Part shown: positions 8,568 through 60,706 of the stretch, one piece after another
How positions within the stretch are numbered: position 1 is the stretch's first letter
How the letters are laid out: each line of letters opens with the position of its first letter
Source of the DNA: Minisyncoccales bacterium
GTDB lineage: Bacteria > Patescibacteriota > Minisyncoccia > Minisyncoccales > JAGMDC01
Assembly: GCA_049642725.1 (NCBI GenBank)
Contig: JBARPC010000004.1
Coordinates: 27,052-91,051 of the forward strand
DNA length: 64,000 nt
Direction of reading: 5' to 3'
The notes under the pieces: generated by a model
What the model saw: the letters and a program-made list of their open reading frames with translations, nothing else
The model's database searches: none
Told to the model about the DNA's origin: nothing
Translations under genes and position numbers: made by a program

Positions 8568-8600
8568 GGAGAACAGTTCTCCTTAGGAGAACTGTTCTCT
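8568..8600. repeat. REP-like double palindrome (GGAGAACAGTTCTCC-tta-GGAGAACTGTTCTC) overlapping the gltX stop
   Basis: Two tandem 14-15 nt perfect palindromes with core GAGAACWGTTCTC. The second copy encodes the last gltX residues (REQFS) and the stop. Confidence 0.7.
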
Positions 8601-10124
8601 GGCTCCCCTTACTCTCTTTAATGTCTTCTCTTTCCCTAAAATTTCTGCGACTTCAAATGGCGGCGCAGACGCCTTTTTCCCTGTCAATGCAACCCTCAAT
8701 GGCCATAAGAGTTCTCCCCTATCCCCTGTTCTTTCAGCTTCAATCATTAGAATCTTTTCTAAGTTTTCTTTATTAAAATCTTTCTCTTCTATTTTTGACA
8801 ATATTTCTTCTAATTTGTCAAGGATTTCAAGAACCTGCTTATAATTCATATCTTTCCACTTCAACAAATTTTTATCATATTCTAATTTGTCTTTGAAAAA
8901 GAAATCAGTCAATTCAGCAATTTCTGATAAATATCTTAACCGCTCCTGATATGCCTTAACAACTTTTTTTAAATAATCGCAGCTAATAACTTCGTCTGTT
9001 TCTTTGATTTTAAACTCTGGTTTTTTTTCTTTGAATAATTCAAATTTTTGAGAACTGTTCTCCTTGGGAGAACAGTTCTCTATAGTTGCTGTCACTTGTT
9101 CTATTAAATTAGCTTTTATTAAATATGGAATACACAATTCCGTTATTTTTTTATCTGATTTCTGGCGGATATAAAAGCCGTTTAAATAATCAAGCCGTTT
9201 GACGTTGAAAACAGCACCTCCTTTTTGAATATTGTCTAAGGAAAATTCTTTAATTAAAGAGACAATATTATATATTTCTCTTTCTGTGCCTGGATTCCAG
9301 CCCAAAAAAGCCATAAAATTAATTAAGGTTTCTAGTAAGACACCTTTTTCTCTGTATTCGGAAATAGCGGTTGCTCCATGCCTTTTGCTTAATTTGCTCC
9401 TGTCCGGGCCTAAAATTAAAGGCAAATGAGCGTATTTTGGCTGGGAAAAGCCTAAGGCCTGCTGAATAAGAATTTGTTTTGGGGTATTGGAAATATGATC
9501 TTCTCCTCTAATGACATGGGAAATTTTCATTTCAAAATCATCTACAGCAGCAGCAAAATTATAAAAAGGTTTTTTAAGACCTTTACTAATAATGAAATCA
9601 CCTATTAAGCTTGAGTCAAATTCAATTTTTTCCCTGACTAAATCCTCAAAAACTATTTTTTTTACTGATTCTGGAATTTTAAACCTGATAACAAAAGGTT
9701 TTTTTTCTTTTAAATTCTTTTCAACTTCTTTTTTAGAAAGCTTTCTGCACTTGCCTGAATAAAGAAGCGCTTGACCCACAGAAATTTGATATTGTTTTTG
9801 AGCTTCTAACTCTTCCTCTGTGCAAAAACAATAATATACTTTATTTTCATCTAAGAGTTTTCTAATATATTTTTCATAAATATCTAATCTTTCACTTTGT
9901 TTATAAAATTCATCGCATTTTAATCCAAGCCATTCCAAGCTTTCCATAATGTTTTTTTCATATTCAGGCCTTGATCTTTCTGAATCAGTATCTTCAATTC
10001 TTAAAATAAACTGGCCCTGATTTTGTTTGGCAAAAATATAGTTAAAAAGAGCTGCTCTGGCAGTACCAATATGTAAAAAGCCCGTAGGAGATGGAGCAAT
10101 TCTTGTTCTAACTTTTTCAATCAT
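8583..10124 (-). CDS. gltX: Glutamyl-tRNA synthetase
   Basis: RIAPSPTGFLHIGTARAALFNY (HIGH region) and KLSKR (KMSKS-like). 513 aa, including in-frame palindromic inserts. Confidence 0.9.
   Translation of the reverse strand: MIEKVRTRIAPSPTGFLHIGTARAALFNYIFAKQNQGQFILRIEDTDSERSRPEYEKNIMESLEWLGLKCDEFYKQSERLDIYEKYIRKLLDENKVYYCFCTEEELEAQKQYQISVGQALLYSGKCRKLSKKEVEKNLKEKKPFVIRFKIPESVKKIVFEDLVREKIEFDSSLIGDFIISKGLKKPFYNFAAAVDDFEMKISHVIRGEDHISNTPKQILIQQALGFSQPKYAHLPLILGPDRSKLSKRHGATAISEYREKGVLLETLINFMAFLGWNPGTEREIYNIVSLIKEFSLDNIQKGGAVFNVKRLDYLNGFYIRQKSDKKITELCIPYLIKANLIEQVTATIENCSPKENSSQKFELFKEKKPEFKIKETDEVISCDYLKKVVKAYQERLRYLSEIAELTDFFFKDKLEYDKNLLKWKDMNYKQVLEILDKLEEILSKIEEKDFNKENLEKILMIEAERTGDRGELLWPLRVALTGKKASAPPFEVAEILGKEKTLKRVRGAREQFS
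9050..9081. repeat. REP-like double palindrome (GAGAACTGTTCTCC-ttg-GGAGAACAGTTCTCT) inserted in-frame inside gltX
   Basis: Same composite element as at 8568-8600. It encodes ENCSPKENSSQ within GluRS. Confidence 0.7.
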
Positions 10125-14038: not shown

Positions 14039-15511
14039 CTATTTAAGATATAACTTTCTTAAAGCTTTGTCAAAATTTTTAGGCAGATTATTCTGCTTAT
14101 TCCAGGAATTTAATATTCTTTTTGATTCTATTTCAATATTTAAATACCTTGGTAATATTCTCTTCTCAAAATAATTTAAGAGAACTGGAAGTTTGAATTT
14201 TTGTGCATATGCATTTTTTTTCAAATTTTTGTTTTCTTTAAATTTTAGATAGCTTAGATAAAAAGCGATTAAACTTTCTTTTTTTGTGCCTACGCATTCA
14301 AACGGTTTTGTTTTACTCTTTCCTATCAACTCCTTCATTATCGGCAGTAATTCTTTTTTTTCAAAAAGATTCTGGCTAAAGATTTTCATTAATTTTTTTT
14401 CTTCAATAAATGGATATAAAATTGTGAAAACAAACAAGCATTTTGAGCATTTCCCGCACCATTTGCCAGTTGATTTTTTGGTTCCAGAAGCAGTTTTATA
14501 GGCCTCATTACAGCTAAGGAAAACCGGGAAATATTTTGGTAATTTAGAGAATAATCTTGCTATTTGGATTTCATACAAAGGCCTTAGAAAACTAAAATAG
14601 TTTATATCTTTAACTAAATATTTTTTGACATAATTTCTATATTTGTTTTCAAATTCAGAACTTTTAGACCATTGATGATTGATTGTTTTGCCAAGATATT
14701 TTATATTGCCTTCATCAGCGCTTTTTTCGCAGGACATTGCTATATTGTTATGGCCGAATAAAACTCCGCAAAAAACAGCTAAATTAGAAATTACTGCTGT
14801 AATTGGCGTATGGCCGTTTAAAAATCCTTTTTGGTTTAATTTTAATAAAGCAGGATCTATCTTTCTTTGGGCAATGATTGGATTTTTAATTTTAGCAATC
14901 TTTAAAATTTTGAAATGCTCTTTTGTAGGATTAACAATAAAACAATTTTTTTCAAATTTTTTGAGCAATTCTAAGGTAACAATTGAATCTTTTCCCTCGC
15001 CCATTGGTATCAAAACATTATCTTTAAGTAAACTCACGATCGTGAACTTACTGTTATTTTTATTTATTTTATTTAGACAACATATTTTTAGAAAATCAGG
15101 TCTTGTAAAGTCAATTTTGTTTTCAAAGAAAAATTGTCCCATTCCGTTAAAGATAAAATCTTTCCACCATTTTATTTGCTGTTTATCTAAATAGCCGGCT
15201 TTTATTTCAATTATTGGGGAGCAAGCCGCTTTCCAATAACTTGGTATTTCCATTAAACCAATGTGAAAAACAAGGCTATTTAATGCACTCCCACCTACTT
15301 TATCCAAGTTTTTTTTATTAACATTTTTTATAATTATTTCCGGTTTAAAACAAATACTACGAGAACTGTTCTCGTAGTGAGAGATTTTAAAATCAAAAGA
15401 AATTTTCAAATCATTTCCAGATATTCCATAAGAATATCCCTGATAAATAAATTTCGGATATTTTTTTCTTAAAACCTCAACATTTTTCATATTATTTTTA
15501 TTATTACTCAA
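14039..15511 (-). CDS. Hypothetical protein with a PP-loop-like GEGKDS motif and a C-terminal CxxC pair; possible ATP-pyrophosphatase/amidotransferase-like enzyme
   Basis: MGEGKDSIVTLELL resembles the SGGxDS PP-loop. CGKCSKC motif. Embedded in the mur cluster. Carries an in-frame REP insert (YENSSRS). Confidence 0.4.
   Translation of the reverse strand: MSNNKNNMKNVEVLRKKYPKFIYQGYSYGISGNDLKISFDFKISHYENSSRSICFKPEIIIKNVNKKNLDKVGGSALNSLVFHIGLMEIPSYWKAACSPIIEIKAGYLDKQQIKWWKDFIFNGMGQFFFENKIDFTRPDFLKICCLNKINKNNSKFTIVSLLKDNVLIPMGEGKDSIVTLELLKKFEKNCFIVNPTKEHFKILKIAKIKNPIIAQRKIDPALLKLNQKGFLNGHTPITAVISNLAVFCGVLFGHNNIAMSCEKSADEGNIKYLGKTINHQWSKSSEFENKYRNYVKKYLVKDINYFSFLRPLYEIQIARLFSKLPKYFPVFLSCNEAYKTASGTKKSTGKWCGKCSKCLFVFTILYPFIEEKKLMKIFSQNLFEKKELLPIMKELIGKSKTKPFECVGTKKESLIAFYLSYLKFKENKNLKKNAYAQKFKLPVLLNYFEKRILPRYLNIEIESKRILNSWNKQNNLPKNFDKALRKLYLK
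15356..15378. repeat. REP palindrome ACTACGAGAACTGTTCTCGTAGT inserted in-frame in the 14039-15511 CDS
   Basis: Perfect 11-bp arms around a central T. Same element as the copies flanking the RAYT gene. Confidence 0.7.
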
Positions 15512-58466: not shown

Positions 58467-58856
58467 TTATTTCTCTAAAAATTTCTTAAATAATCCCTTT
58501 TTTGCTAAAGTATCATGGAATAAATCCAGCAAATATGGGTCATCCATTTTTCTGGCTACTTCTACAGCGTAAGCCAAACCCTGGGATTGAGCCAAATCCA
58601 AAAGATGCTGGATTTTTCCCTTAACAGTTCCCTTTTTTATATCTTCGGCTTGCTTCCGGGCTTGGACTTTTGCTTGGGGAGATAATTTGACCTTTTCAAT
58701 CTCTTTTTCTATTTCCTTCTTTACTTCTTTTTCTTCCTCGGTTAATTCTTTCTTTTCTAAAATCTCTTCCCTCTTTTTTATGGTTTCTTTAGGAAAAATC
58801 TCTTCCCTATATTCCTTTCCCGGCTCTTTTTCAATTTTTTTATCAAATTCTTCCAT
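58467..58856 (-). CDS. Charged hypothetical protein (129 aa)
   Basis: ORF co-oriented and tightly spaced (3 nt) upstream of the ATPase gene. Confidence 0.4.
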   Translation of the reverse strand: MEEFDKKIEKEPGKEYREEIFPKETIKKREEILEKKELTEEEKEVKKEIEKEIEKVKLSPQAKVQARKQAEDIKKGTVKGKIQHLLDLAQSQGLAYAVEVARKMDDPYLLDLFHDTLAKKGLFKKFLEK

Positions 58857-58963
58857 ATCTTGATTCTATCATAATTTAACTAAAAATAAAGACCTATTTT
58901 CAATTTTTGGCTCACCCCGTAAAGCTTCGCCACGGGGCACGAATTTTTCCCGCATATTATACT

Positions 58964-58986
58964 ACTACGAGAACAGTTCTCGTAGT
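58964..58986. repeat. REP palindrome ACTACGAGAACAGTTCTCGTAGT (GTAG-type), 3' flank of the RAYT gene
   Basis: Perfect 11-bp arms. Preceded by a CCCCGT...ACGGGG hairpin plus T-run at 58906-58950. Confidence 0.75.
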
Positions 58987-58988
58987 GT

Positions 58989-59699
58989 TTAGTTTATTAA
59001 TATTTCTTTGAAATTAGAATCAGCCATTTGTTTTTTAAGCGAAATCCATTCTTTAACAAAATGACGGCTGTTATCTATACTGCCCATTAAGTTAGATAAT
59101 AACTCTCTGTTTGTTAATAAAGGATAATTCTTCTTGCCCAAATAATCAGGATAGCTTGACCATTTATAGTTTTCTAAAAATTTAATAACATCTTCTATAT
59201 TTTTGGTTTTTATCCCCTCTTCTTTCCATTTAGGAGCTATAATAGCTACAGGATTGGTATGAATGTAAACAAATAATGTTTTTAATTGCTCATCGTTTTT
59301 TACAATAACTGCCCTGAATCTCCCGTCAAAAACATGGCCCTTTCTTTCGTATTTCTTATTATAATACATTCCATATCCAGCTCCAATCTTTCTCATAAAC
59401 TTACTAATCCCTTGGCCTCTAACTTGTTTAATTAATAGATGAACATGATTTGGCATTAAACAAAAAGTCAAAATTTCCACCAACATTTTTCTTTCCTTCT
59501 TTATTCTACCACTACGAGAACTGTTCTCGTAGTGTTGACGATAAGACCAAATAGTGGGATTTTTGTCGTTAAATTCAAATAAATTATGAAGAGAACGAAA
59601 ATAATCCCTTTCGTCTCTAAAAAGCTTCATTCCTTCCACTGCCCTAATTACAATATGGTATATTTCTCCGTTTACTAATGGTGGTCTTTTAATTGGCAT
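58989..59699 (-). mobile_element. REP-associated tyrosine transposase (RAYT; IS200/IS605-family Y1 HuH transposase TnpA)
   Basis: HuH motif CLMPNHVHLLIKQ and catalytic Tyr motif YIHTNPV. Flanked on both sides by the 23-nt REP palindrome. Confidence 0.8.
59511..59533. repeat. REP palindrome ACTACGAGAACTGTTCTCGTAGT lying in-frame inside the RAYT CDS (encodes YENSSRS)
   Basis: Identical to the flanking REPs. Located in the N-terminal third of the transposase gene. Confidence 0.75.
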
Positions 59700-59727
59700 A
59701 TTATATTATATTTTATCTTACTTACGC

Positions 59728-59750
59728 ACTACGAGAACTGTTCTCGTAGT
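59728..59750. repeat. REP palindrome ACTACGAGAACTGTTCTCGTAGT, 5' flank of the RAYT gene
   Basis: Lies between the RAYT start (59699) and the stop of the adjacent CaCA gene (59753). Confidence 0.75.
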
Positions 59751-59752
59751 GT

Positions 59753-60706
59753 TTATTTGACGAGGATTTCGGTTATTACAAAAGCGATGTAAACGCCTAA
59801 AAGGAATAATCCTTCTTTTTTTGTGATTTTTCTATCAGTGCGGACAAAAATAAGAAAGAATAAAGCAGCCATTACCAAGAAAAACCGGGCAACAGCATAA
59901 GGAGAAAAACTGGCAATTTCAATCGGACAAATAATAGCCACAATGCCTAAAACCAATGTAGAAGCAACAATAACAACGCCCATTAAATCGCCTAAAAGCA
60001 TCCAATTCTGGCCTTGCCTGGCTGAAAGAATGGTAAAGTATGCTTCTGGAAAAGCGTTGCCAATAGCAACAACAAACATTCCGATAAAAACCAAAGAAAA
60101 ATGAAAGGTCTCTCCAAAATAAAAAGCAGCTTCTACCATTCCTTTAGAAGCTGCGAGTAAAATAATTATTCCAAAAGCTACTTTCCCCAAACCCTTAAAA
60201 AAATCTTTAAAATCCTTTACACTAACTTTATTCCCATTATATGTCTTACTAAACCTTTCTTTTTTTGAAAAGAGCCAAAAAACATAAAACACAAAGGCAG
60301 AAATTAAAACTGCTCCGTCGCCTCTTGATAAGATACCGTCAAAAATTAGAAAAAGAGGCAGAATAGCAATAAAAAAGGTAAAAACTGCTGATGACTGGAC
60401 CATCTTGCTTCTAGCTGGTATTCCCTTGCTTACAAAAACAGACAGAGCAATAATAACCGTTAAATCAATAAGGTTTCCGCCAATAGTATCTCCGAAAGAA
60501 AGCTGAGGAACTCCTTTAAGAGCAGACAGAATGCCAAAGAAAAAATTAGGAGCAGAACCAGCAACAGCAACGATAAAAAAAGCAATAACAAATTCCCTTA
60601 ATTTCAAAAAACAAGCCATTTTTACTAATCCGTCAACCAGCCATTTTCCAGACCAGAAAAGCAAAAAACAAGAAATAAGAAAAAGTAAGATATAAAAATA
60701 AAACAT
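59753..60706 (-). CDS. Ca2+:cation antiporter (CaCA family, YrbG-like)
   Basis: Two alpha-repeat motifs (GDTIGGNLIDL and GNAFPEAYF). About ten TM segments. Confidence 0.8.
   Translation of the reverse strand: MFYFYILLFLISCFLLFWSGKWLVDGLVKMACFLKLREFVIAFFIVAVAGSAPNFFFGILSALKGVPQLSFGDTIGGNLIDLTVIIALSVFVSKGIPARSKMVQSSAVFTFFIAILPLFLIFDGILSRGDGAVLISAFVFYVFWLFSKKERFSKTYNGNKVSVKDFKDFFKGLGKVAFGIIILLAASKGMVEAAFYFGETFHFSLVFIGMFVVAIGNAFPEAYFTILSARQGQNWMLLGDLMGVVIVASTLVLGIVAIICPIEIASFSPYAVARFFLVMAALFFLIFVRTDRKITKKEGLFLLGVYIAFVITEILVK

Follow-up and report, generated by a model that had tools for sequence, protein, structure and literature searches.

A palindrome within the reading frame of a RAYT-like gene of Patescibacteria and its matching copies on either side

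We describe a gene resembling the REP-associated tyrosine transposases (RAYT; REP, repetitive extragenic palindrome) in a 64-kb stretch of the genome of a Minisyncoccales bacterium (assembly GCA_049642725.1, contig JBARPC010000004.1, positions 27,052 to 91,051; hereafter the window). A perfect palindrome lies inside its reading frame, and the same palindrome stands before and after the gene. The closest described systems are the REPtrons, which were reportedly described by Nunvar (2010), Ton-Hoang (2012) and Bertels and Rainey (2011). A REPtron consists of a tnpAREP/RAYT gene flanked by its cognate REP hairpins, and a classification of these genes is available (Quentin et al. 2018, PMC6006769). 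The window locus and its relatives resemble REPtrons in encoding a class-2 'Y---NP' Y1/HUH protein with the same palindrome on both sides of the gene, in having a separate hairpin family for each paralog, and in their low copy number, divergent paralogs, synteny and some dispersed copies. They differ in that a third hairpin copy lies inside the open reading frame (ORF) at a fixed place, that few dispersed copies were seen, and that the protein scores below the cut-off of the NCBIfam model REP_Tyr_transpos. The hairpins differ too: the canonical REP is an imperfect hairpin with a GT[AG]G foot, whereas those found here are perfect palindromes with a centre of 1–3 nt and no general 5' GT[AG]G foot, GTAG being absent from most homologous loci (as in GGAAGTCGGACTTCC and CGGGGTCTGACCCCG). 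The window palindrome has CTAC...GTAG within its stem, with GTAG on the 3' side.

Two subclasses of the classification are of particular relevance. The motif signature found here (NHVH / FQ / YIHxNP / SS tail, about 236 residues; in the window protein NHVH / F(Q/D) / YIHTNP with a WSSY tail and 236 residues) resembles that of subclass 2.1 (Table 1 of PMC6006769), for which a lack of REPs is reported (Quentin et al. 2018, PMC6006769). Subclass 2.4 (NH[IFV]H / WQ / YIxNNP, about 194 residues, from Cyanobacteria and Bacteroidetes) is described as having in-frame REPs inside the tnpAREP gene, between HuH and Y (PMC6006769, Fig. S10), and there, as here, the gene carries its own REP in frame and without disruption, in a peripheral variable region. 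The internal palindrome of the window gene, however, occupies residues 56–64, upstream of the HUH motif (residues 85–87), in the loop from alpha-A to the following beta strand; the subclass 2.4 REPs are GTAG-footed or of a 'double foot' type, and the two proteins belong to distinct subclasses. Family-wide positional conservation, frame switching and covariation with flanking copies do not appear in the passages of that paper considered here. In-frame REPs inside tnpAREP genes are already known, from subclass 2.4 (Quentin et al. 2018, PMC6006769), and what is distinctive here, judging from the sequence comparisons below, is the family-wide three-hairpin architecture, the frame-independent conservation of structure and the concerted evolution within each locus.

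The protein also shares its fold and catalytic motifs with IS200/IS605 TnpA, and by that analogy hairpins would be its expected DNA substrates. In IS200 a 5' hairpin limits translation, and hairpins near the start of the gene restrain transposase expression. IS200/IS605 elements differ from the present family in being multi-copy and near-identical, with imperfect subterminal hairpins at the left and right ends only; we know of no internal cognate hairpin in an IS200/IS605 coding sequence. Rickettsia palindromic elements (RPEs), said to have been described by Ogata et al. in 2000, are about 100–150 bp long and have no associated transposase gene. Like the RPEs and the intragenic REPs (Di Nocera et al. 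2013, PMC3733652), the present repeats are short palindromes that lie in frame in housekeeping genes and encode small peptides in permissive loops, the present cases being gltX, pth, yceG and one gene of the PF26298/PF26299 family. They differ from the RPEs in that the putative mobilising gene of the element itself carries a copy, conserved across the gene family. A literature search for RAYT or REP in Patescibacteria returned nothing specific.

The palindrome in the window gene

The internal palindrome, hereafter H2 (CACTACGAGAACTGTTCTCGTAGTG, 59510–59534), is a perfect 12+1+12 palindrome of 25 nt within the RAYT-like ORF (58989–59699, minus strand). It begins exactly at codon 56 and spans codons 56–64, reading CAC TAC GAG AAC AGT TCT CGT AGT G on the coding strand, that is, H56 Y E N S S R S (G64). 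A first-pass annotation of the window had reported its core, the 23-mer at 59511–59533, as an exact REP copy inside the transposase frame, translated as YENSSRS, with the ORF remaining open; the sequence and the 236-codon ORF confirm both statements. When folded as single-stranded DNA, the segment gives the hairpin expected of it (z = –3.4), and none of the shuffles folds equally well.

A pattern search of the window with up to three mismatches found four copies of the 25-nt palindrome, starting at 15355, 58963, 59510 and 59727, against an expectation of 0 from 100 dinucleotide-preserving shuffles. The upstream copy, H1 (59727–59751), is identical to H2 at 25 of 25 positions, lies 27 nt 5' of the ATG and directly follows the stop codon of an upstream Na/Ca-exchanger-like gene. 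The downstream copy, H3 (58963–58987), lies 1 nt past the stop codon of the RAYT-like gene, with its centre base flipped and one end base altered. The 23-mer is found in identical form on the plus strand also at 59728–59750 and 15356–15378, and at 58964–58986 it matches only as the reverse complement because the centre base alone is flipped. The fourth, dispersed copy (15355–15379) is read in frame as HYENSSRS in an ORF of the PF26298/PF26299 family (14039–15490, minus strand). In-frame residence is allowed because the core GAGAAC-N-GTTCTC contains no stop codon in any reading frame.

The assignment of the host gene as Y1/HUH transposase-like rests on the ORF list, Pfam, homologs and fold. The Pfam model Y1_Tnp (PF01797, IS200-like) matches residues 69–148 only, at 44.6 bits against a cut-off of 23, and NCBIfam REP_Tyr_transpos (NF047646) gives 46.2 bits, below its cut-off of 80. 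Alignment of homologs places the HUH motif at H85-V86-H87 (59439–59447, minus strand) and the catalytic-type tyrosine, Y145, in the motif YIHTNP (59265–59267, minus strand), which fits the class 2 'Y---NP' tyrosine motif as defined in PMC6006769. Across 40 homologs H85, H87, Y145, H147, N149 and P150 are invariant. A fold search was used since a profile search of PDB sequences gave only weak matches (nothing at E up to 0.01, and ISDra2 TnpA weakly at E of about 0.05). The top PDB matches found by Foldseek were ISDra2, IS608 and IS200 TnpA, with a probability of 0.97–1.0 and a target-normalised TM score of about 0.5. The AlphaFold2 model is of moderate confidence (mean predicted local distance difference test, pLDDT, 65.6) and comprises beta1 (residues 13–20), alpha-A (30–43), a loop (44–73), the strand before HUH (74–82), the HUH strand (85–92) and the Tyr helix with Y145 (136–148).

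H2 falls in this loop (codons 44–73, 59481–59570, minus strand), for which the alignment, pLDDT and codon substitution rates all point to relaxed protein constraint. The pLDDT is below 50 for residues 58–66. In a codon comparison with an ortholog of 77% identity, the nonsynonymous rate dN is 0.073 and the synonymous rate dS 0.61 outside the loop (ratio 0.12), and in loop codons 45–73 they are 0.50 and 0.81. By this comparison the RAYT-like gene is under purifying selection, and its loop is nearly free at the protein level, yet retains a perfect palindrome; the gene behaves like a domesticated single-locus gene. The suggestion of the first-pass annotation that the protein tolerates its own REP as a peptide insert holds: the residues concerned belong to a loop of low pLDDT and poor conservation that joins alpha-A to the strand preceding HUH, and in the AlphaFold2 model this loop is poorly ordered and lies outside the core.

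Several other features surround the gene. A promoter scan upstream of it found no convincing sigma-70 site; TATAAT stands directly before its ATG. H1 and H3 are terminator-like on the plus strand (59726–59752 and 58963–58987), with a T-rich tail that H2 does not have, and on this strand the signal is antisense to the RAYT-like gene and all neighbouring genes. The A/T-rich flank suggests the same orientation for H1 and H3 in the window. Between H3 and the next gene there is a GC-rich hairpin at 58905–58945 (GTGCCCCGT ... ACGGGGTGAGC, minus strand). This hairpin has no relation to the REP family and is possibly a terminator.

Three hairpins across the gene family

Relatives of the RAYT-like protein numbered 2252 at E ≤ 1e-5, with at least 536 loci in GTDB genomes, and all relatives with a source name came from Patescibacteria, Parcubacteria or Minisyncoccales or were labelled just 'bacterium'. 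An alignment of 40 relatives (56–78% identity) shows no gap opposite the palindrome, although the loop varies in both length and sequence. At the same alignment place several relatives have YRQHYENSSRS or YENGSRD and others have TRTVLV. The latter is what the DNA core encodes when its reading frame is shifted by one base (ACG AGA ACA GTT CTC GTA), which pointed to conservation of the DNA and not of the peptide. For a comparison at the DNA level, 80 homologous loci from GTDB genomes and the locus of the closest relative were taken, of which 78 were analysable; these come from other Patescibacteria genomes and encode proteins of 38–77% identity. The loop searched runs from the FEFN motif to the strand preceding HUH, and a hairpin score of at least 8 was taken as a strong palindrome.

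Such a palindrome is present in the loop of 57 of the 78 loci (73%), and in 42 the score is at least 10, a level reached by 3 of 225 equal-size windows elsewhere in the ORFs (1.3%) and by none of 780 dinucleotide shuffles. The stems are 8–19 bp long, with a centre of 1–3 nt. Many loci with a weak H2 keep a degraded copy in the loop that departs from the flanking hairpin of the locus at 1–4 positions (among them L009, L014, L058, L066, L071, L023, L024, L025 and L075). Alleles without the insert, which the first-pass annotation proposed to look for in related genomes, did not turn up: a short, hairpin-free loop was found in none of the 78 loci. The layout recurs in independent NCBI, ENA and JGI assemblies, and an assembly artefact was rejected on that ground.

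The palindrome itself differs from locus to locus (CGAGAAC.GTTCTCG, GGAAGTC.GACTTCC, CGGGGTC.GACCCCG and GGTCCTT.AAGGACC are among those found), and the flanking copies follow it. An H1 with the core of the locus's own H2 lies upstream of the ATG in 89% of the H2 loci (median distance 40 nt), a corresponding H3 lies downstream of the stop codon in 71% (median 9 nt), and both match in 39 of 57, compared with 1.1% in a cross-locus control. The typical layout has H1 some 25–50 nt before the start, H2 about 55–65 codons into the gene and H3 a few nt past the stop. The agreement extends beyond the core: H2 and its own H1 or H3 share a median of 12 identical consecutive arm bases, against a median of 6 for pairs from different loci that agree in the inner 6 nt. 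Homogenisation at each locus therefore covers the entire palindrome, about 25–31 nt, and amounts to concerted evolution. Paralogs within one genome (L004, L006 and L019, from JACPGX01) each have a separate hairpin triplet.

The maintenance acts on nucleic-acid structure, since pairing is kept by compensatory changes while frame and peptide vary. The centre of H2 is in reading frame 0, 1 or 2 in 27, 18 and 12 loci, respectively, and the encoded peptides are unrelated (YENSSRS, TRTVLV, NREQFSD, EVGLP and SGSDP, among others). In the 43 loci with a 1-nt centre, stem positions 1–8 are 98–100% Watson-Crick paired with two to four pair types each, against 12–40% when the partner is slid by one base; a weak inner consensus, G-A at positions 6-5 from the centre, is seen family-wide (36–39 of 43 loci). 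The closest relative, P0002 (L081, 77% identity), illustrates the pattern. It shares upstream synteny with the window, including two Na_Ca_ex genes, and its H1 is ACTGTCCGAGAACcGTTCTCGGACAGT and its H2 AACTTTGCCGAGAACaGTTCTCGGCAAAGTT, with a diverged H3. Compared with the window H2, this H2 is read in a different frame (KTLPRTVLGKV) and has compensatory changes in the outer stem, which is again self-complementary. As far as these sequence comparisons go, it is the DNA or RNA structure that is conserved, and the protein only has to tolerate H2. Whether the position shows conserved residues and not an insertion, a point raised in the first-pass annotation, thus has a divided answer: the position is conserved as a DNA palindrome, but its amino acids are not.

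The 1–3 nt centres of H1, H2 and H3 within a locus are either identical or exact reverse complements in 121 of 130 pairs. Over the 57 loci the two states are about equally frequent, and other substitutions almost never occur, which suggests a flip-flop inversion of the centre or copying in either orientation. An attempt to read hairpin orientation from the loop bases yielded no consistent geometry.

Further in-frame copies of a locus's own palindrome were seen in L048 (residue 255), L050 (218), L053 (156), L064 (202) and L078 (166), at places that follow the Tyr helix or belong to the C-terminal tail. In L053 the usual loop contains no hairpin cognate to the flanking palindrome, although the additional copy is present in the ORF. 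Composite flanking hairpins, consisting of nested palindromes or of two inverted copies that form a REPIN-like super-hairpin of 45–57 nt, occur upstream in L010 and on both flanks in L018 and L060. These three loci have no strong internal copy matching the flanks, and the loop hairpin of L010 is unrelated to its H1.

What may keep the palindrome in place

We consider it likely that H2 is a long-standing, maintained third member of a REPtron-like three-hairpin locus, evolving with H1 and H3, and not a fresh insertion. If the encoded single-strand DNA HUH enzyme works like IS200/IS605 TnpA and E. coli TnpAREP (background in PMC6006769 and PMC3733652), it would recognise and cleave H1, H2 and H3, and H2 is probably a site for that enzyme. 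H2 could be kept matched to its neighbours through repeated overwriting, either by the enzyme or by gene conversion or template switching over a short range, the copies being separated by less than 600 bp; selection against a mismatched H2 might also keep it matched. More speculatively, a cognate site in the transcript or gene body may provide negative feedback on the enzyme's own expression, by enzyme binding to the extruded hairpin, by an mRNA hairpin or by long-range pairing of H1 with H2. We offer only tentatively, and with some doubt, the further proposal that H2 is a functional third cis-site and that the gene is obliged to carry the recognition hairpin of its own enzyme in its coding sequence. 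The enzyme could then bind or nick the extruded H2 hairpin; alternatively, H2 in the mRNA might act alone or pair over a long range with the identical H1 so as to enclose the start region. If this proposal is true, the locus would have built-in negative feedback, with the specificities of enzyme and hairpin locked together, and the family would present a case of dual coding in which nucleic-acid structure and protein use the same bases while the protein frame remains free.

The exact identity of H2 and H1 (25/25), taken alone, looks recent, and the first-pass annotation had considered a recent self-targeting hit that left the gene inactive. We regard a recent insertion, with the gene inactivated or about to be, as highly improbable. 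Homologs with as little as 38% identity share the feature, with a palindrome in 57 of 78 loci and no gap in the homolog alignments; the syntenic ortholog of 77% identity also has it, in a different frame; and the ORF is intact, with invariant HUH and Tyr residues and a dN/dS of about 0.12. We give almost no credence to conservation at the protein level, in which a needed peptide motif would happen to have palindromic DNA. Some homologs do have peptides similar to YENSSRS, and one Arg column seems almost invariant, but the use of all three reading frames with unrelated peptides rules out conservation of YENSSRS as a peptide; the compensatory base-pair changes, the match to non-coding flanking hairpins of the same locus, the high dN of the loop and its low pLDDT likewise argue against a needed motif. 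Conservation of structure and not of peptide would also be expected of an RNA or DNA element independent of the enzyme, such as an mRNA hairpin that slows translation or sets stability, or a double-stranded operator for some other dimeric factor; the terminator-like character of H1 and H3 on the plus strand, antisense to the RAYT gene, is in keeping with such an element, as are REPs elsewhere that act as mRNA stabilisers and terminators (PMC3733652). A generic role of this kind does not, however, need H2 to have the sequence of its own H1 and H3, yet 71–89% of loci match; the inner G-A consensus (36–39 of 43 loci) tracks the protein family and suggests a family-specific reader; and an Rfam scan of 58700–59900 with E up to 1 found no known RNA family, only a single chance miRNA match. 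We therefore think an enzyme-independent element very unlikely.

A more serious competitor, although still an unlikely one in our judgement, holds that H2 is a neutral passenger: REPs insert readily in coding DNA, the loop between alpha-A and the beta strand is the most permissive site near a REP source, and the loop copy is repeatedly replaced or homogenised by REP turnover with no function for gene or element. Several observations favour it and weigh against a maintained third hairpin. In about 20–25% of loci H2 has decayed between persisting H1 and H3 copies, and some lineages can therefore do without it. In-frame REPs occur in unrelated genes (gltX, pth, yceG and the PF26298/PF26299 gene), and copies appear sporadically at other positions of RAYT homologs (L048, L050, L053, L064 and L078); insertion into coding DNA is thus common in the clade, and the loop, as the most permissive site, might hold a purely neutral passenger. 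Identity over the whole palindrome within each locus fits overwriting rather than selection, and the in-gene REPs of subclass 2.4 were read as tolerated insertions (Quentin et al. 2018, PMC6006769). It also tells against a maintained enzyme site that recognition of H1, H2 and H3 is argued from analogy with IS608 and E. coli TnpAREP, that the roughly equal frequency of same and reverse-complemented loop bases gives no orientation signal for a specific enzymatic geometry, and that the REP seems to be present in few copies, the 64 kb containing just one further exact one. A neutral passenger, on the other hand, does not readily account for a loop occupancy of about 85% including remnants, over 38–100% identity and without an empty site, when any other ORF site is occupied at 3% or less. 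The PF26298/PF26299 gene, taken as a control, shows sporadic presence and absence, and the RAYT-like gene does not; moreover, perfect stems of 8–19 bp have been retained over deep divergence.

A maintained three-hairpin locus would touch on several questions in the field, among them the matching of RAYTs to their repeats, the spread of REPs and the restraint on RAYT expression. The family offers about 80 natural replicates of a cognate hairpin at a fixed intragenic point that co-varies with its flanks while the frame is free to change. The system is therefore suited to studying the action of an enzyme on its own gene, the homogenisation of palindromes over a few hundred bases and the cargo capacity of an HUH loop.

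The same palindromes in other coding DNA

The view of the first-pass annotation that this REP family is compatible with in-frame residence is borne out by the copy at 15355, a gltX doublet, pth and yceG/mltG. The copy at 15355 lies in frame in a conserved Patescibacteria protein of the PF26298/PF26299 family. Most homologs of this protein do not have the 8 residues, a minority have them intact or decayed (HYEDRPRS), and some have two copies; other REP-like peptides, such as NTTRTVLVI in P0203, occur elsewhere in these proteins. Such patchy occurrence is typical of sporadic insertion, and the RAYT-like gene does not share it.

In gltX, which encodes Glu-tRNA synthetase (ORF 8583–10124, minus strand), a related palindrome family, GGAGAAC[A/T]GTTCTC[C/T], is represented by two tandem doublets (four copies; 8568–8600 and 9049–9081). 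One doublet is in frame in the linker between the catalytic (residues 4–312) and anticodon-binding (380–508) regions, giving a peptide of approximately ENCSPKENSSQ, and the other straddles the stop codon and provides the C-terminal REQFS.

The palindrome 21-mer was found in 41 metagenome contigs, about 9 at RAYT-like loci, of which 4 show the three-hairpin spacing (about 200–217 and 534 nt), and about 30 away from RAYT genes. The remaining contigs have single copies or doublets, and in several cases these are read in frame within pth or yceG/mltG. In pth (peptidyl-tRNA hydrolase; L085 and L101) the 21-mer is read as TTRTVLVV directly before the conserved IHDD strand, and in yceG/mltG it is in frame in L091, L092, L096, L110, L111 and L122. 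The copies in pth and yceG/mltG look like an RPE-style decoration of housekeeping proteins. Small as their genomes are, Patescibacteria have housekeeping genes with RPE-like palindromes in frame, which matters for the annotation and alignment of their proteins. In L105 the 21-mer lies just upstream of an ftsW/rodA-like start.

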